A model generated the notes under the pieces. That model worked only from the letters and a program-made list of their open reading frames with translations. It ran no database searches and was not told the DNA's origin. The position numbers and the translations under genes are program-made. Positions 2,476-23,636 of a DNA stretch of 64,000 nt are shown piece after piece; positions within the stretch are counted from its first letter, which is position 1, and every line of letters begins with the position of its first letter. This DNA is from Mucilaginibacter sp. (GTDB lineage Bacteria > Bacteroidota > Bacteroidia > Sphingobacteriales > Sphingobacteriaceae), in NCBI RefSeq assembly GCF_028288105.1, contig NZ_JAQBOI010000090.1:119-64118 (forward strand), written 5' to 3'.

Positions 2476-2549
2476 TCCTGAGTAGCTCAGCTGGTTAGAG
2501 CATCTGACTGTTAATCAGAGGGTCCCTGGTTCGAGTCCAGGCTCAGGAG
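2476..2549 (+). tRNA. tRNA-Asn (GTT)
   Basis: Acceptor stem TCCTGAG/CTCAGGA, D arm, anticodon arm TCTGA-CTGTTAA-TCAGA, T loop TTCGAGT. Confidence 0.97.
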
Positions 2550-2550
2550 C
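2506..2550 (+). repeat. attL (tRNA-Asn 3' half)
   Basis: 42/45 identical to 23592-23636. Confidence 0.9.
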
Positions 2551-2993: not shown

Positions 2994-5177
2994 ATGTCAC
3001 CTCACAAAATTTTTCTCTCCTATTCCTGGGCAAACAATGCTATCGCCGATGAGATAGATGGTCATTTTCAAAAATATGGTATATCGCTGATCAGGGATGT
3101 GCGCGCATTAAGGTACCGTGATGAGCTCAAGGCCTTTATGGCCAAAATCCAGGAAACGGATTTTGTGGTGATGCTGATTGGTCATGATTTTCTGCAGTCA
3201 GAGAATTGTATGTTCGAGATGCTGAAAATGATCCAGGCAAAGGATTTTGGGAAGAGGATCTTACCAATAAGCATTGGCGACGCTAAGTTTTACAATGCGG
3301 CGCAGCGCGCGGTGTATTACCGCCTATGGGATGAAAAGATCGCAGCTACTAGAAAGCTTGCCGCAGAGTTCGAAACCACTGATTTTGTTGAGTTGCTCAA
3401 ACATCAGCGGGATGTTCGCAACGAACTTCCGGATTTTTTTACGAAGATATGTGCTATTAACCTGAAAACCTTTGCCGAATTACGCGATCAGGGCTACCGA
3501 CCCATATTTCAGATATTGGGCTACAATGACCAGCAATTTATTGATCGCCTGAACCTAATCAGTGAGATCAAGGATGTTGATCTTAAGTTCACGGCATTGG
3601 AACAATTGAGTGTGGAATACGGGCCTGGTTATTTAATCGATTTTCAAAAAGCAAAACTTTATAAACAGGAGGGGAAATTTAAATTAGCCAAGTTATTTTA
3701 CGAAAAAGCCATCAACGTTCAACCCCAATACGCACATATCTATAATGACTACGGGGTTTTGCTGGAAACCCATTTCGATGATTTCGACCAAGCGCTCGCA
3801 ATGTATAAAAAGGCCTTAGCGATCGATCCGGCCTTACAGGCAGCCATATTGAACTATACCAATGTGATAGAAACACATTTCCAAAAGTACGACCAGGCTA
3901 AAAAACTTTGGGAAGAAGCGATCGAGCTTTATCCGGAAAATGTAAAATACAAGATCAATCTAGCCCATTTATTGGCTTGGCATTTCCAAGAACATGAACA
4001 GGCGCTGCACTATTATTTTCAGGTGCTACAGCAAAAACCTGCTTATTATAATGCGGTGATTGGGATCGCTGCGCTGCTCAATTCTATGAATCGCAAGCGG
4101 GAAGCGGCTTTATATTATCAGCAAGCGCTGGTTTTAAGACCGAGTGCCATGGTGTTTAGCGACTATATTTCCCTGCTGGTCTCCCTAGATGATCGCGCCA
4201 TTCTGAAAACGGTTATGGCCAGCGCCCTGCAGTTATCGCCCGCAGCGGACCTTTTCGCGCAATGCGCCCGGCTGGCCTATGAATTGTTCGCGGACCTGCC
4301 ACAAGCCAAGACATACTATTTGAAGGCAATCGCGCTGGCAAAGGACGATCCTAAGATCTTAAATCAATTCGCCGTTTTTTTGGAGTATCAGCTGCAGGAT
4401 TTTGATGAGGCCAAGCGATATTACGAAATGGCGATCAGCTGGAATGGCAAAAATGCTATTTATCATTTTAATTACGCTTACTTGGTTGACCACCGGTTCA
4501 ACGATTTCGAATTAGCAAAAAAGCATTATTTACTGGCAATCAAATATGCTCCTGAGGCTTACGATAATTATGTGAATTATGGCGACGTGTTATTTCGGGA
4601 GGGATCAGTAGTAGAGGCCATCGCCTGTTTTGAAAAGTCGGTCCAGTTGAACCCGGGCCACAAACTTGGTTATGCCAATATCAGCCGCTGTTATCTTCAG
4701 CTTGAAGAGCTGGAAAAGGCTAGTCATTACCAGGAAAAAGTATTGGAATTAGCCCCGGCCGATACGCGTGCCCGGGTAAGGTACGCGGAGCTATTAGCCA
4801 AAATGGAACGTTATGCGGAGGCAGAGGCGCAGTTCGAATTAGCTATCGCGGTGATCAAAAATGTGGATGATGCGAACGACTATGTGCAATTTTTGCTACA
4901 GCGGGGTAACTACAAAAAAGCAGAGGAGGTCATTGATCATGCGATCACTATAGCGCCTGATGATCTGCTGTTGCACGCCAATCATAGCGTGATCTTAATG
5001 GTAACAGGCCGGTCTGCAGAGGCAAGATCTCTGCTGGAGAATTTGTTGCAATATGAACCCGACTCGGGGATGATCCATCATAATCTGGCGTTGATCTATA
5101 AGGATCTACCCGATAAGGAGTTATATGAAAATCATCTCCGTTTAGCGAAACAATACGGTGTTGATCTCCAAAGTTAA
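2994..5177 (+). CDS. TIR domain + TPR repeat protein (putative anti-phage sensor-effector)
   Basis: N-terminal FLSYSW and FLQSENCMFE (TIR box with putative catalytic Glu), then many TPR-like repeats (e.g. YEKAINVQP, YKKALAIDP). Confidence 0.85.
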   Translation: MSPHKIFLSYSWANNAIADEIDGHFQKYGISLIRDVRALRYRDELKAFMAKIQETDFVVMLIGHDFLQSENCMFEMLKMIQAKDFGKRILPISIGDAKFYNAAQRAVYYRLWDEKIAATRKLAAEFETTDFVELLKHQRDVRNELPDFFTKICAINLKTFAELRDQGYRPIFQILGYNDQQFIDRLNLISEIKDVDLKFTALEQLSVEYGPGYLIDFQKAKLYKQEGKFKLAKLFYEKAINVQPQYAHIYNDYGVLLETHFDDFDQALAMYKKALAIDPALQAAILNYTNVIETHFQKYDQAKKLWEEAIELYPENVKYKINLAHLLAWHFQEHEQALHYYFQVLQQKPAYYNAVIGIAALLNSMNRKREAALYYQQALVLRPSAMVFSDYISLLVSLDDRAILKTVMASALQLSPAADLFAQCARLAYELFADLPQAKTYYLKAIALAKDDPKILNQFAVFLEYQLQDFDEAKRYYEMAISWNGKNAIYHFNYAYLVDHRFNDFELAKKHYLLAIKYAPEAYDNYVNYGDVLFREGSVVEAIACFEKSVQLNPGHKLGYANISRCYLQLEELEKASHYQEKVLELAPADTRARVRYAELLAKMERYAEAEAQFELAIAVIKNVDDANDYVQFLLQRGNYKKAEEVIDHAITIAPDDLLLHANHSVILMVTGRSAEARSLLENLLQYEPDSGMIHHNLALIYKDLPDKELYENHLRLAKQYGVDLQS

Positions 5178-8913: not shown

Positions 8914-9714
8914 ATGGCACATAGCGTTTACATATCATCCAACTTAACACAGCAACAACTTGAATTTATGAAATTGCTGGATGACTATGAAATAGAGCTA
9001 TTCCAATTTGAAGAAATTGAAAGCCAAATCAATAGAAAGTTTGACAACCTCAACGAAGTTCTTGAAAATTTAGTCCATAAAGAACTGCTTTCCCGGATAG
9101 AGCGGGGGAAGTTTTGCAAGGTTAATTTCCGTGATGAAAACGTAATCGGCACGTTTGTGGTAAAAAATAGCGCAGTGGCTTATTGGTCGGCTTTAAATCT
9201 ACATGGGTTAACCGAGCAATTTTCTAATACGATATTTATCCAGACCACATATAGAAAGACTGATAAAACCCTTTTAGGAACTCCATATAAATTTGTTACT
9301 ATAAATTCTGGTAAGCGTACCGGTATTATGTACAATGGCTATGGCAATACAAAATATCCTATAACGGATGTTGAAAAGACCATTATAGACTGTTTCGACC
9401 AACCACAATATTCTGGTGGTTATGCTGAACTAATAAGGGCTTTATCCCAGGCAGAGATTAATTCTGATAAGATGATCAATTATTGCAGACAAGTCGGCAA
9501 TAGTGCTGCTACAAAAAGGATGGGATTTTTGGTGGAGCTATTTGAAAAGCCATTTATGAATAAATTTATTGATTTCGCAAAAAAACAGATCACTGAGAAG
9601 TATAACCTTTTTGATCCGCAGGGAACAGAGAAAGGTGAATTTGTAGCAACTTGGAAGTTGAGGCTGAATATCAGCAAAGATGAATTGCTTAATCTAACGG
9701 ACAAACAATATTAA
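8914..9714 (+). CDS. abiEi: Type IV TA antitoxin, AbiEi family
   Basis: N-terminal wHTH, AYWSALNLHGLTEQ, ITDVEKTIIDC motifs; TAATG-coupled to the toxin. Confidence 0.85.
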   Translation: MAHSVYISSNLTQQQLEFMKLLDDYEIELFQFEEIESQINRKFDNLNEVLENLVHKELLSRIERGKFCKVNFRDENVIGTFVVKNSAVAYWSALNLHGLTEQFSNTIFIQTTYRKTDKTLLGTPYKFVTINSGKRTGIMYNGYGNTKYPITDVEKTIIDCFDQPQYSGGYAELIRALSQAEINSDKMINYCRQVGNSAATKRMGFLVELFEKPFMNKFIDFAKKQITEKYNLFDPQGTEKGEFVATWKLRLNISKDELLNLTDKQY

Positions 9715-10579
9715 TGATACTGAGGAAGGAAATAGAGAAAATTGCACTGCAAGAAAATGTATCCTGTAGTACGGTAGATAAGGATTGGGTATTAGGTCAT
9801 TTCATTGATGCTATATTCTCTGTCCCGTTATGCCGGGATAGTCTTGTATTTAAAGGCGGTACCTGTTTAAAAAAGTGCTATATACCTGACTACCGATTTT
9901 CAGAAGACCTGGACCTTACATCTGTAAACCCTGACTTTGTATTAAGCCGGGAATTATTACAGGAAAATAATCGAACTGATAACACAACGAACAGAAATTC
10001 CTTTATTTATTGATTCTATAAAAGAATTGAAGCATAAGGACATGCCTACCGGCTACAGCCATCATTAAGTTTTGGGGCGCAGATCATTTAAAGAACCAGG
10101 CACCACCTCCCCCCGAAAGATGGGCAACAAGCGTAAAAGTAGAGATTATCCTTTTTGAAAAAATGTTATTCCCGGTTAGCTTACGGCCCATAACACATGC
10201 GTATTCTGATAAATTGGCCTTAGCAGATCAAATTATCCCCTGTTATGATTTGCAAGAGGTAATGTCGGAGAAATTGAGAGCGTTAATACAGCGCTCCTAT
10301 TCTGCACCGAGGGACTACTTTGATATATGGTATCTATCCCATAAGCTTGAAGCTATAGAATGGCCGATAATAGTAAAAGCCTTTCACCAGAAAATGAAAT
10401 TTAAAAACTTGAAATTTACCGGCATAGACCAATTTTTAAATGATGATGTAGATAAAAAATTTAAAGGTGCATGGAAAAATAGCCTTGCCCATCAGATACC
10501 ACATGAACAATTACCACCTTATAGTCAGGTGAAAGAAGAGCTATCTTTATTGTTTGAAAAAATATTTAATGCCAATTGA
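9714..10579 (+). pseudogene. abiEii: AbiEii nucleotidyltransferase toxin, two frameshifts
   Basis: FKGGTCL..RFSEDLD in the first frame and EKLRAL..PRDYFD in the last; continuity is restored by shifts near 9964 and 10055. Confidence 0.85.
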
Positions 10580-10817
10580 GGCCAGCGGCTGCGGCAGGTG
10601 GCTTCATTACACCACGCGCTATCGCGCCGGGTTCCATTCCGCCGCCAGCCTCGCCGCCACGCAAGCAGGAATGAAATTCGCTATCGCTCATAACATACCT
10701 GCTACGGGCCTAGCCACTTAAAATGAGTTAAGTAAAGGCAACAGCAAATTAACAATAAAGATGACTATTAAGGGGCATTGTAAACAATAGTCGAAATACA
10801 ACAATAATCAGGTGATA

Positions 10818-11243
10818 CTACTGTATTCTCTTTTTGGCTTTAAGCTCCTCAGATAACCTTATAAAATTAACCGCAGGAAGTAGAATAGGGCTTATGCCTG
10901 CCTTCAAAGTAGTGGTAGCTAAATGCTCTCTTAAAAAAGGAAACATAATTGCAGGGCCATTGGCCTTTGCAAATTGTTCAATAGGTATAACGGGTTCGGA
11001 ATCGCATTTAAAGATGCCCATCATTTTTATTTTGGCCGAAATTTCTTTTACTCTTTTTTTACCAGCCGAATAATCTAAAGTGACAGTTATATGTAAAGTC
11101 TGATTTTCTAAAACTTGGTGGTCAACAGTTATGTCGGCATTGTTTTTAAACGATGGGTCTTCAAAATTCACATTTATTGCACGTTTAAAATTACTTTCGA
11201 GCAAGTAAATTTCAGTCAATCGAAAAGAGGATTTGTTTGCCAT
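10818..11243 (-). CDS. SecB-like chaperone
   Basis: 141 aa; YLLESNF, GIF, NGPAIMFPFLRE, PILLPAVNF are SecB-family motifs. Confidence 0.85.
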   Translation of the reverse strand: MANKSSFRLTEIYLLESNFKRAINVNFEDPSFKNNADITVDHQVLENQTLHITVTLDYSAGKKRVKEISAKIKMMGIFKCDSEPVIPIEQFAKANGPAIMFPFLREHLATTTLKAGISPILLPAVNFIRLSEELKAKKRIQ

Positions 11244-11797
11244 TATGCCGCTAAAGAATAGTCCGGTTCGTTTTCTACTTCATCAACTGGGCAGTCTTGC
11301 GCATTGACAGATTTTGAGTGCAAGTTGAAAGTTGGCGATTCAAAATCATTATTATGATTACGCAAATTCAAACTGAAGTTAAAAACCTTAGAATATTGTT
11401 TTACCTCGTAAATATCTTGCTTAAAAACCACAGATGTTGGAATTTCCGGCACAAAATCTTCCAACATTATATCAAGGTTCTCGTCATTCCACGATATGCT
11501 TATAGTGTTGGTGTGGTACTTATTACCACATTTAATATACTCAGGTTGATTTACCGTAAAAAGATCATCTTCTGTAATGAAAGCGAGCCCTTCACTTGGG
11601 TAGATCTTAATAAAGTCAACGATAACGTCATTTTGCTCTTTTACAAAACGACTATCGTATTGTTCAAAAACATCTTTTGGTAAAACTTCAATGAAATGCG
11701 TTTCGCTTAGTTCGTCCATCTGATAACTAAACTTCACGTAAGGAAAATGTTTAGCTAACTCGTTGATTTTAGAAACTATATATTTTTTTGAGCTCAT
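11243..11797 (-). CDS. Hypothetical protein, putative antitoxin with ChAD-like tail and ssrA-like C-terminus
   Basis: Translationally coupled between the HEPN and SecB genes; ends ...ENEPDYSLAA. Confidence 0.7.
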   Translation of the reverse strand: MSSKKYIVSKINELAKHFPYVKFSYQMDELSETHFIEVLPKDVFEQYDSRFVKEQNDVIVDFIKIYPSEGLAFITEDDLFTVNQPEYIKCGNKYHTNTISISWNDENLDIMLEDFVPEIPTSVVFKQDIYEVKQYSKVFNFSLNLRNHNNDFESPTFNLHSKSVNAQDCPVDEVENEPDYSLAA

Positions 11798-12213
11798 AGC
11801 TGAAAATGTTTTTTTAGAAGAGAATTCGCTTGCACTGAAAAGTCGTAAGCTAACAAAGCATCTCTATCTATAATGTTTTTAACGGAATAATCCGCCTTGG
11901 CACGTGCCGTACTTAAACTTTTTATTTTTGCATTAAATTTAGAAGCATCTGTACCGTCTCCGTCTATGCGAATAAATTCAATGTAAATAATATTTTGTAA
12001 CCACTTATGATACCCATTCTCATTTTTGGCTCCTTCTTTTCCCTCTGCAGTAATCTGCAATTCAGTTTTCCCAAAATGCGAACGGAGTATGTGCAGCATT
12101 AATTGCACACATGCGTAATACGCACAATGGACACTTGAAGAGAACAACGAAGCTTTAATAAGTTTGTTTGAGGCAATGATACTTTCATCTGATTTAATAA
12201 TTAAAACCGACAT
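11794..12213 (-). CDS. HEPN domain protein (UPF0332-like), putative RNase toxin
   Basis: SSVHCAYYA, H in GYHKW, R-x-x-ADY (RAKADY); ATG at 12213 gives 139 aa. Confidence 0.78.
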   Translation of the reverse strand: MSVLIIKSDESIIASNKLIKASLFSSSVHCAYYACVQLMLHILRSHFGKTELQITAEGKEGAKNENGYHKWLQNIIYIEFIRIDGDGTDASKFNAKIKSLSTARAKADYSVKNIIDRDALLAYDFSVQANSLLKKHFQL

Positions 12214-20429: not shown

Positions 20430-21419
20430 CTAATCCTTCATCAGCTGTTTGAGCCTGCCATGATACGATTGTAAATAATTCCGTTGGGTTGTTTCGTCAA
20501 GAAAAGAAGCTAATGTGAGTTTTTCGACAGTTGTTGATTCTGAAATCATTGATTGGGCTATTCCTTCAAATACTTTTTCGCTTATGCCTGATTGCTCAGC
20601 CAGTACTGAAAACTGGTGCCTAATCTTACCTTGTGTGAGGTTCTTTGGTAATAAGCCGTCATCAAGTGCAAAGTCATTGTCTTTGATATGTATGCGGCTG
20701 TTAAGCAGGTCATAAGCCGGACTTAGGCGGTAATCCCCCATCGGGGTTTCCAACAGCGAAAAGTTTTTGAAGTGGGCGTCTCCGTTTGAAAACAAATAAT
20801 TGAACATTAATAATTTCAATAATTTTGGTGCTTCCAGTTTATATGCAGGGACGTATTGCTCCATAATCTTAAAAAGATCTAAGTAGTTTCCGAGGTACTT
20901 ATAGTGTTCTCCGTGGGTCTGGGGCGTTCTTCCTGCAAGCGACGCAAAATCGTCCTGTGCCAGCTTTTCTCCTTCTTTCGTTACATCAAAACGTTTAGTA
21001 ATATAAGCAGGCTGCCCGTTCTTAAAAAATATCAATGCATTTTCAGCAGTTTCTATGCTATACACCTGCCGGGCAATTTGCATGGTTAAATGTTCATTAG
21101 CCGGCAATTGGTCAGATTTTCTGCCAGCGTTTGGAATCGGCTTCAATATATAGGTTCCTCGTTCACCCTCATTGATCAGCCTTAGTCTGTTTTTTTCGAG
21201 CAACACGGAAAACTTTTCCTGTACACCAGAGATAGACATCCGCCTCTGGTTTTCCTCAAATAGCTCATCCGTCTCTGGGTTTGAAGCAGGAGAATCATAA
21301 AGTAAAATATGATTTACTTTTTTTCCATTAAAAACCCGGTTAAGACAAGTCCGGCTATAAGTATTATAGCCGGGTGCCAATGTGCCCGGGCAATACTTTA
21401 TTTCTGGCAGGTTACTCAT
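20430..21419 (-). CDS. HipA/HipT-family Ser/Thr kinase toxin
   Basis: SISGVQEK Gly-rich loop, NGDAHFKNFS, LSPAYDL. Confidence 0.9.
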   Translation of the reverse strand: MSNLPEIKYCPGTLAPGYNTYSRTCLNRVFNGKKVNHILLYDSPASNPETDELFEENQRRMSISGVQEKFSVLLEKNRLRLINEGERGTYILKPIPNAGRKSDQLPANEHLTMQIARQVYSIETAENALIFFKNGQPAYITKRFDVTKEGEKLAQDDFASLAGRTPQTHGEHYKYLGNYLDLFKIMEQYVPAYKLEAPKLLKLLMFNYLFSNGDAHFKNFSLLETPMGDYRLSPAYDLLNSRIHIKDNDFALDDGLLPKNLTQGKIRHQFSVLAEQSGISEKVFEGIAQSMISESTTVEKLTLASFLDETTQRNYLQSYHGRLKQLMKD

Positions 21420-21744
21420 TATCTTCGGCTTTAAGGATAGTTACTGCACCTATGGTGTCGTTTTTTGCGATGGTTAACAAGAGTCCAAAATAATCAGTCT
21501 GGTCAATTCTGTTGAGCTTGCAGACCACCTGTTTATTCGATCCTTCCGGAAGCATGTTGTAAAAAAACGGAAAGAGAAACTCAGATTCGTAAATCTTTTC
21601 CGTTTTTGGTAAAGTGAGGCTAATATCTGGCTTGCTACCATCGCCAACCCAAGAAGGATGATACTGAAACGTAAAAAAACCATTATCAAGCTGCTCCAAT
21701 ATGCCGGCTTCTTGCTCCTTAAATAATACTTTGGCTTTTCTCAT
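21412..21744 (-). CDS. HipA N-terminal-domain protein (HipS-like antitoxin)
   Basis: FTFQY, ISLTLP, LFPFFYNMLPEG, DTIGAV. Confidence 0.88.
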   Translation of the reverse strand: MRKAKVLFKEQEAGILEQLDNGFFTFQYHPSWVGDGSKPDISLTLPKTEKIYESEFLFPFFYNMLPEGSNKQVVCKLNRIDQTDYFGLLLTIAKNDTIGAVTILKAEDNE

Positions 21745-21959
21745 CGAATATCTGGTTTATTCTTTATGGTCAAACTGAGTTCCAGACCTAATGTATCGCC
21801 GAGCTTTTGCAGCGTCATTAAAGTGGGATTGCCTTTACCACTTTCAAACTGCTTTAACGTTCTAAGGCCTACTCCTGATAGTTGCGCGAGCGTTTCCTGG
21901 GTAACCTGTAGAGATTCCCTGCGCAATTTAATTGTTCTTATTATTTCCTCAAAGTGCAT
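21741..21959 (-). CDS. HipB-like XRE HTH regulator
   Basis: TQETLAQLSGVGLRTLKQFESGKGNPTL; coupled to the HipS-like gene. Confidence 0.88.
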   Translation of the reverse strand: MHFEEIIRTIKLRRESLQVTQETLAQLSGVGLRTLKQFESGKGNPTLMTLQKLGDTLGLELSLTIKNKPDIR

Positions 21960-22122: not shown

Positions 22123-23364
22123 CTATCCAAAATCCATTAGTTTATCAGCTATTTCCTGCTTTACGTTATCCTCAAAACCCGCCCAGTAGTTTTGAGTTGT
22201 ATTCAAGCTGCGATGGCCTAAACTTTCCTGTATCAACTCCATTTTAGCGCCATTACGGATGGCAGCCGTTGTGAAAGAATGCCGTGCGTAATAGGTAGAT
22301 ATATCGGCATCCAATTCCAGATCCTTCGCCAGTTTTTGAATATGCTGATTGACAAAACGAATAAAGTTCTGATTTACCCTTAGCTTCTCAGCCTCGTCCA
22401 TCTTTTTAGTTAATATCGGAAATACATAATTGTCGGGTAGAAAAGGACGGGTACCATAGCGTTCTATTACTGCTTTAATCGTTTCTGTTAAAGGAATAAT
22501 AATGGGCTTGGGCTTGTCTTTAGTGGTATGAAGCGTTTTATGTCGCAAAAATGAAATAGACTTTTTGTTAATGTTTTTATACTTCAATTCTGCAATGTCA
22601 CGGAAATTCATACCATTACACTGGTAACTAAAAAACCAAAAGTCCCTTGCTTTTTCTTTCGGGCTACCTGGTTCTACCGGCGCGGTATAAAGTTTTTTTA
22701 ACTCTTCCTTACTTAGGGCCTTCTTAATATTTTGGCCTGTAGGTATTTTATATTTTTTGAAAGGATACAGTTCAGCAGCAATACTGCCTTCTTCCATAGC
22801 CTTATTGAAAATAGCCCGTAATGGCCGTAAGTATATACCTACAGTAGTTTTGGACTTGTCGGCAGCTACCATCCAGTTTTCATATCTATTTAAAAAATCA
22901 ACTGTAACACGGGAGAAGGAAAGACTTGATGCGGGGTGGTTATCCTTGCCGGCAAATTCAAGCAATGACTTTAAGCTTAAACGGTAATTGGAAGCTGTGC
23001 CTGCACGGCCATATCTTGTCAATTCATCTATGTAATCCTGATAGTACGCGCAAACATCTGTAGTGGCGGCTTGAGAGCGAAACATTTCCCGCTCAAATTT
23101 ATCAAGGATAAACAAGCCATCCATTTTAGCAATAATTCTGTTCGCCTTTGCTTCTATGGCATCTAAAGATATTTTAATCTCCTGAAATGCTTTCTTAGGT
23201 TTTTCGGTTAAGTAGGATTGTTGGAATTGTTGAGCCGTCAGGTGGATGTCTGTAGGATAGTGCCTGATATCGGTACGGGAGATATATAACCTAATTTTTA
23301 CCGGTGCTTTTTTACCAGTTTCAACCTTCCGTTCATCTAAATATAAGTTAACTTTTACTGCCAT
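22123..23364 (-). CDS. Site-specific tyrosine integrase
   Basis: Arm-binding N-terminus, GMNFRD, YYARHSF, LGH, catalytic Tyr in TTQNY; adjacent to attR. Confidence 0.95.
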   Translation of the reverse strand: MAVKVNLYLDERKVETGKKAPVKIRLYISRTDIRHYPTDIHLTAQQFQQSYLTEKPKKAFQEIKISLDAIEAKANRIIAKMDGLFILDKFEREMFRSQAATTDVCAYYQDYIDELTRYGRAGTASNYRLSLKSLLEFAGKDNHPASSLSFSRVTVDFLNRYENWMVAADKSKTTVGIYLRPLRAIFNKAMEEGSIAAELYPFKKYKIPTGQNIKKALSKEELKKLYTAPVEPGSPKEKARDFWFFSYQCNGMNFRDIAELKYKNINKKSISFLRHKTLHTTKDKPKPIIIPLTETIKAVIERYGTRPFLPDNYVFPILTKKMDEAEKLRVNQNFIRFVNQHIQKLAKDLELDADISTYYARHSFTTAAIRNGAKMELIQESLGHRSLNTTQNYWAGFEDNVKQEIADKLMDFG

Positions 23365-23591: not shown

Positions 23592-23636
23592 GACTGTTAA
23601 TCAGAGGGTCGCTGGTTCGAGCCCAGCCTCAGGAGC
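23592..23636 (+). repeat. attR (displaced tRNA-Asn 3' half)
   Basis: GACTGTTAATCAGAGGGTCGCTGGTTCGAGCCCAGCCTCAGGAGC. Confidence 0.9.

Follow-up and report, generated by a model that had tools for sequence, protein, structure and literature searches.

A three-gene module in a defence-rich element of Mucilaginibacter sp. is probably a toxin-antitoxin-chaperone (TAC) anti-phage switch in which, by analogy with described TACs, a HEPN protein would act as the toxin, a protein here called X as the antitoxin and a SecB-like protein as the chaperone. The triad is real and conserved and apparently undescribed, and it apparently represents a TAC in which both the toxin class and the antitoxin family are new. 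All three genes lie on the minus strand of the 64,000-nucleotide stretch analysed (the window): the HEPN gene at 11794..12213 (139 aa from its ATG), gene X at 11243..11797 (184 aa) and the SecB-like gene at 10818..11243 (141 aa). The translational coupling described in the initial annotation was confirmed, with an ATGA overlap between HEPN and X at 11794-11797 and a TAATG overlap between X and the SecB-like gene at 11241-11245. A TTG upstream of the HEPN start could yield a protein of 175 aa, but the homologues begin at the ATG; the nearest named relatives are from Mucilaginibacter, at 73% identity in the HEPN. The GC content is low at the triad, 0.33 (11001-12000) vs about 0.42 across most of the window. 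A promoter scan gave a chance-level result (10 found vs 8.1 expected), and the only contig over X from the one RNA run is 151 nt long, which is no evidence of expression.

To assess conservation, every open reading frame in the collected loci was compared with profiles made for the purpose. Of the HEPN-anchored loci, those with 1,100 nt or more downstream were counted and shorter ones set aside; the order HEPN-X-SecB is present in 88/95 of them, comprising 6/7 loci from named genomes, 7/7 from the family, 44/46 from metagenomes (taken from the 80 listed of 343 matches) and 31/35 from viral contigs. When the search is anchored on X, the order is found in 8/8 genome loci, with one spurious match dropped, and in 25/27 viral loci, the remainder being one locus with HEPN and X in a single ORF and one with X alone. 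L013 (E 9.6e-4), a cas3/cas1-type region, was judged a spurious match and left out. The loci are related and many of the viral ones are near-copies; after dereplication the order holds in 76/80, a figure that leans upward because short loci were kept when complete, and the ATGA overlap is found in 65/80. The initial annotation had asked whether a neighbourhood search would find the three genes together, and they are kept together far beyond chance.

Several loci depart from the common arrangement. In L172, L179, L192 and L193, X keeps its AA end and lies next to a 138-aa, weakly SecB-like gene (hhalign probability 5.8% in L172). The X tail is interrupted in L008 and L151, where what is left of it keeps an AA end ahead of SecB. 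L138 is broken, and L121 has SecB and a called X ORF without the degron. L121 and the L172-type loci count against the TAC reading. Pairwise identities correlate at rho 0.42 between HEPN and X, and at 0.26 and 0.24 between either of these and SecB, a pattern that fits a tight HEPN-X pair with an exchangeable chaperone and to which shared ancestry also contributes.

As in described TACs, the third gene encodes a SecB-like protein that is not of the housekeeping type. It matches Pfam PF02556 at 48 bits (cut-off 26), scores at most 43 bits against the housekeeping SecB equivalogs (cut-offs 103-277), and has its best PADLOC match in PD-T4-9_C, the CmdC chaperone, at 64.9 bits. It is the sole SecB match in its own genome, which is 88.5% complete. 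SecB is rare in the phylum, with 16 loci in 12/400 other genomes, and two of these loci (in G109 and G365) are HEPN-X-SecB. The other 14, classed by eye and without family scans, carry an ART/CmdT-like gene in seven cases, a RelE/HigB-like gene with an HTH in five and an HTH only in one, and one is apparently solitary. TAC-like Bacteroidota loci with CmdT-like or RelE-like toxins, again by eye, are L017-L019, L020, L023, L024, L026 and L028-L030, and their antitoxins also end in LAA, LVA, LAG or VAS-like small aliphatic motifs. L021 and L022 (G115 and G275) appear by eye to have the order small helical gene-SecB-ART/CmdT-like toxin, unlike TACs. Comparable short helical ORFs lie upstream of HEPN in L241, L242, L257 and L258, and P0113 and P0178 are fusions of such an ORF with X.

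The toxin position is occupied by a HEPN protein of the PF05168 type and not by any of the known TAC toxin families (HigB, MqsR, HicA, ART). The window HEPN alone has no Pfam HEPN match; PF05168 is matched by 13/23 aligned HEPN homologues at E<=0.1 (best 1.6e-7), and the HEPN profile matches PDB 9xbd ('HEPN domain-containing protein', E 7e-6) and 9xbc (6e-5). Single-sequence searches for the HEPN in viral contigs and among PDB sequences were blank or uninformative. In 62/62 non-redundant complete triads, drawn from 103, the residues H29, Y32, Y33, H69, R104, D108 and Y109 are invariant. The last three form an RxxxDY motif, RAKADY in the window (R104-x3-D108-Y109, 11887..11904, minus strand), with D in place of the H of canonical HEPN RNases, and the RX4HXY of class I HepT finds no match, the canonical His being absent. 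By its sequence the HEPN follows the class II (HEPN-T, UPF0332-type) pattern of an R, a D for H, a conserved Y and an upstream conserved H. It has been proposed that in HEPN-T, where D replaces H, an upstream H could build an alternative active site (available text of PMC3710099), and the candidate catalytic residue in the window HEPN would be His69 (12007..12009, minus strand).

The HEPN is predicted to be an RNA-cutting toxin. According to Yao et al. (available text of PMC7641770), the RNase motif is missing from class II HEPNs, which were biochemically unstudied. The canonical motif is confined to class I HEPN according to the available part of a 2024 paper (PMC11586414), and a literature search turned up no work on the activity of class II HEPNs later than Yao 2020. 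Given that the RX4H histidine is absent, RNase activity of the triad HEPN is a prediction rather than an established property. Of the HEPN-RNase TAC put forward in the initial annotation, the TAC part is supported, and the toxin is now placed in class II with RxxxDY and without the RX4H histidine. It is quite improbable that the module is a TAC whose class II HEPN is toxic in some other way, such as by binding RNA, a nucleotide or a protein target. Such a toxin would agree with the missing histidine, with the unvalidated activity of class II in the same two sources and with an invariant H29-C30-x-Y32-Y33 patch that is no known nuclease motif, but the invariance of R104, D108 and H69 matches the R plus upstream-H site proposed for HEPN-T.

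In a HEPN tree of 34 rows, made from 21 of the 62 triad HEPNs, two SecB-less HEPNs and 11 canonical PF05168 proteins, the triad HEPNs cluster with L204 and L195, both of UPF0332 type, and apart from the other nine canonical rows (100/99 support), although the exact place of L204 and L195 is unsure because both are long branches. The L204 HEPN adjoins an intact MNT.

Judged by sequence searches, X is a large unannotated family. A profile search with its N-terminal domain (E<=0.001) yields 1,515 clusters at 50% identity, the best 150 of which were analysed as representatives. No Pfam, NCBIfam or PHROGs family is common to more than 2/138 members, the X profile finds nothing below E 0.25 among PDB sequences, and no sequence link to any known antitoxin was found in profile searches of PDB, Pfam, PHROGs and NCBIfam. 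Single-sequence searches of phage and plasmid records with an X homologue, and of viral contigs with a short X (P0093), were blank or uninformative. P0179 looks like an unrelated 827-aa protein and was excluded from the profile, yet it is within the 150 counted for AA ends. P0034 (215 aa) has two tandem X domains and no AA end.

AlphaFold, run with 138 sequences, gives a confident α/β domain of about 90 residues (pLDDT 86-98 over residues 1-90), in keeping with the non-HTH antitoxin proposed in the initial annotation. The domain (residues 1-92; 11522..11797, minus strand) is modelled as helix-strand-strand-helix-strand-strand, with an MNT/KH-II-like fold according to fold searches. The KH domain of KhpB scores highest (Z 8.5, rmsd 2.9, 77 aligned, residues 2-80), and the MNT protein HI0073 (1no5) matches at Z 7.0 (rmsd 3.1, 83 aligned, residues 1-92); other MNT matches are 2rff (Z 5.8), 1ylq (5.7), 8xeh (5.7) and 5yep (5.6). 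These Z-scores are middling and within the range of common folds, and an ESM Atlas structure search with X returned KH-type and other rows and no MNT. As modelled, X resembles MNT and KH-type folds about equally.

The initial annotation had noted that no MNT motif was evident. With respect to sequence this stands: the 150 X domains have no columns corresponding to GSx10DxD, no triad locus contains a match to an MNT profile, and when the 150 domains were aligned by hhalign with 21, 10 and 31 MNTs the probabilities were 4.3, 0.5 and 1.9%, such that X was rejected as an MNT by sequence. A shift in X vs MNT scores has p=0.02, yet no MNT exceeds the 99th percentile of the background. With respect to fold the earlier statement may prove too simple, given that X resembles MNTs as well as KH-II and may be a dead MNT. 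A catalytically dead MNT is plausible because the MNT matches reach the last strand of the domain and because HEPNs of this class are usually paired with an MNT; the sequence tests do not support this hypothesis, which has somewhat less than an even chance of being right. Given the absence of GSx10DxD, X is not expected to AMPylate.

It is highly improbable that X is instead an RNA-binding (KH-like) or enzymatic co-effector that works with the HEPN, its tail and the chaperone merely setting the level of X. The KhpB match would suit such a role, but it falls among scores that common folds reach. Also in its favour are near-invariant residues of X (Y25, H34, P40, E55 and F73) and the locus L241 (1551-2477), where HEPN and X form one 308-aa ORF followed by SecB. 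L241 is a single record, either a natural fusion or a frameshift, and in described TACs a conserved degron on the middle gene product marks a labile antitoxin.

L195 (1489-2141), a more distant HEPN match without SecB that was kept outside the triad counts, has a canonical PF05168 HEPN overlapped by a 96-aa partner that lacks the MNT motif, a tail and SecB. The pair is possibly an intermediate with a weakly X-like partner; the partner scores only P=0.007 vs X and has just one further homologue.

The C-terminal half of X has the features expected of a TAC antitoxin, a disordered, aromatic-containing ChAD-like extension with a degron. In the window the tail (11246..11521, minus strand) has 10 aromatic residues and is modelled with low confidence, mostly pLDDT 49-62 with one helix at 77, and it ends in YSLAA (11246..11260, minus strand), a predicted ssrA-like ClpXP degron. 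Across 110 AA-ending X proteins the tails are 26-131 aa long and acidic, with a median of 7 aromatics. An AA end is found in 109/150 of the X representatives (the best 150 of 1,515), of which 65 end in LAA, and some of the representatives without AA may be cut by contig ends; the background is 18/3,577 ORFs of the window's own genome. In dereplicated triads X ends in AA in 69/76. The TAC reading of the initial annotation is thus supported both by the conserved order and coupling in Bacteroidota genomes, metagenomes and viral contigs with a CmdC-like sole SecB, and by an X tail of variable length whose conserved -AA degron is like that of CmdA.

The ends of X also closely match the Bacteroidota tmRNA (ssrA) tag. 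A tmRNA was not found in the window's own genome (88% complete), so relatives were used for the tag sequence, which is GENNYALAA in 4/5, including both from the same genus, and GDYSYAMAA in the fifth. At least 8 of the 10 positions of AGENNYALAA are matched by 8/148 representatives and 13/100 locus X proteins, and 4/100 locus X proteins match 10/10; the window X, ending in ENEPDYSLAA, matches 5/10. By comparison, 0/3,577 genome ORFs match the tag at six or more positions. Unlike the tag itself, the end of X is encoded in the gene, with varied codons, and the Ala that tmRNA provides without a codon is coded in X. This suggests protein-level mimicry of a host degron, although the tag on X may also have originated by ancient capture, followed by codon drift. 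A clpX is present, with two matches above the cut-off.

CmdA provides a precedent for these features. It also ends in LAA, and ClpP degrades CmdA once capsid protein displaces it from CmdC (available text of PMC11618068). According to the available part of a preprint (bioRxiv 2024.02.24.581848), an AA-to-DD change in CmdA abolishes toxicity, removal of the ChAD makes a TAC chaperone-independent, and HigBAC activation is independent of ClpXP. Going by HigBAC, X may be removed in another way. L006 and L076, with short X proteins of 113 and 120 aa that lack AA and are not followed by SecB, may be a natural counterpart of the ChAD deletion, since degron and SecB are both absent; these are two loci only.

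In the proposed switch, by analogy with these systems, the folded domain of X would bind the HEPN dimer and silence it without modification, since X has no nucleotidyltransferase motif. A SecB tetramer would hold the aromatic tail of X and shield its -LAA end from ClpXP. Upon infection, an abundant nascent phage protein would compete for SecB, X would be degraded through the host tmRNA-tag pathway, and the HEPN would be freed. In the weakest step of the scheme, the freed HEPN would cut RNA by means of R104 and H69, stop translation and abort the infection.

Of the described systems closest to the triad, CmdTAC (PD-T4-9; PMC11618068, PMC9519451, bioRxiv 2024.02.24.581848) has the same toxin-antitoxin-SecB order in the available texts and a non-HTH antitoxin whose long, unstructured tail terminates in LAA, and the window SecB scores best against CmdC models. 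However, CmdT is an ADP-ribosyltransferase whereas the toxin here is a HEPN, and the antitoxin of CmdTAC is a pair of helices whereas X has a folded α/β domain; in PADLOC neither HEPN nor X matches CmdT or CmdA. TACs of the HigBAC, MqsRAC and HicAB types (PMC3581621, PMC5105189) share the gene order, a variable ChAD-like extension, a dedicated SecB and the expectation of an RNase-type toxin, but have DNA-binding HTH or RHH antitoxins and the toxins HigB, MqsR and HicA. Class II HEPN/MNT pairs (available texts of PMC7641770 and PMC3710099; 9xbd and 9xbc) belong to the same RxxxDY subgroup, in which the Tyr that is AMPylated in class I is kept. The triad HEPNs lie near two UPF0332-type HEPNs in the tree, on long branches, and the fold of X matches MNTs at Z 5.6-7.0, but X differs from the partners in such pairs in having a tail, a degron and a chaperone gene, and in an hhalign probability to MNT under 5%.

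The triad might have arisen by rewiring of a class II HEPN/MNT pair, where the MNT lost its motif and became a binding antitoxin with a tail that mimics the tmRNA tag, a captured SecB came to sense phage, and phages replied with a stand-alone, tail-less X that escapes degradation and thereby holds the toxin in check. This history is doubtful; if true, it would give a HEPN-armed class of TACs and a direct route to proving that histidine-less class II HEPNs are toxins. A stand-alone, tail-less X of 103 aa is encoded in a lysis-type cassette of a viral contig (L234:1611-1922), in a locus with no HEPN or SecB match, and ESM Atlas contains X-like clusters of 96-108 aa, one of them 64% viral. The tail-less X of phages is a candidate counter-defence protein, a degron-free antitoxin.

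A HEPN-armed TAC was not found in full-text literature searches that combined TAC or SecB with HEPN or MNT, subscription papers and supplements being outside their scope. The main texts of Mets et al., the CmdTAC paper, Sala 2013, Sala 2014, Bordes 2016 and PMC11980606 contain no instance of the word HEPN, and the available text of the HEPN survey (PMC3710099) contains none of SecB. HEPN and SecB are unconnected in the available portions of PMC9519451, PMC10440598 and a 2026 ParA preprint, while PMC13000451, in the part available, concerns a fused class I-type MNT-HEPN. Sala 2013 (available text of PMC3581621) mentions TAC toxins of unknown function, which are listed in its supplement. In PADLOC 2023 no model matches more than 3/30 HEPN members. 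The triad would add a toxin class and a large antitoxin family to TACs, in Bacteroidota and their viral contigs; the published TAC work compared here deals with other phyla. With the triad one could test directly whether the widespread class II (RxxxDY) HEPNs are toxins and RNases. A degron on the partner would be a built-in means of toxin release and an ssrA-tag-like tail a clean handle on degradation.

The setting of the triad bears on its likely function. The defence island noted in the initial annotation is confirmed, and it proves to be a 21-kb element integrated at tRNA-Asn. The element is flanked by a 45-nt repeat of the 3' end of the tRNA gene, with the left attachment site at 2506..2550 (plus strand) in the 3' end of tRNA-Asn (2476-2550) and the right one, 93% identical, at 23592..23636 (plus strand), which adjoins a tyrosine integrase gene at 22123-23364. 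In addition to the integrase, the element encodes a relaxase, NikA/MobC, TIR-TPR, AbiEi, a split AbiEii, WYL, type I R-M and a HipA-type module. This context, together with the presence of the module in viral contigs and the behaviour of other TACs, leads us to infer a role in phage defence.

A true TAC might instead be an addiction or proteostasis-stress module that stabilises the element or a prophage and does not sense phage, but this is unlikely. Its location in an integrated, mobilisable element and its patchy distribution (9/300 family and 6/400 class genomes, with 2/400 genomes in the phylum) would fit either of these functions, and the TAC of M. tuberculosis is described as stress-responsive (available text of PMC3581621). 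However, three types of E. coli TAC protect against phage in the available published work, the neighbours of the triad are AbiE, WYL, type I R-M and TIR-TPR, and the tail-less X alone in the lysis-type cassette of a viral contig fits counter-defence.

Other parts of the element merit brief description. The TIR-TPR protein (727 aa, window 2994-5177), just inside the left attachment site, is a candidate stand-alone defence gene, and HTH, HipA N-terminal and HipA C-terminal genes at 20430-21959, a HipBST-like three-gene module, adjoin the integrase. AbiEii is broken into two ORFs (9714-10013 and 10163-10579). In this region contigs from two other runs differ by small indels (9964, 10055), and 9718-10707 is absent from one contig. 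At about 10703-10704 the contigs of two runs depart from the window sequence, and a 15.9-kb contig spans the AbiE part and not the triad, which points to the edge of a cassette immediately downstream of secB.
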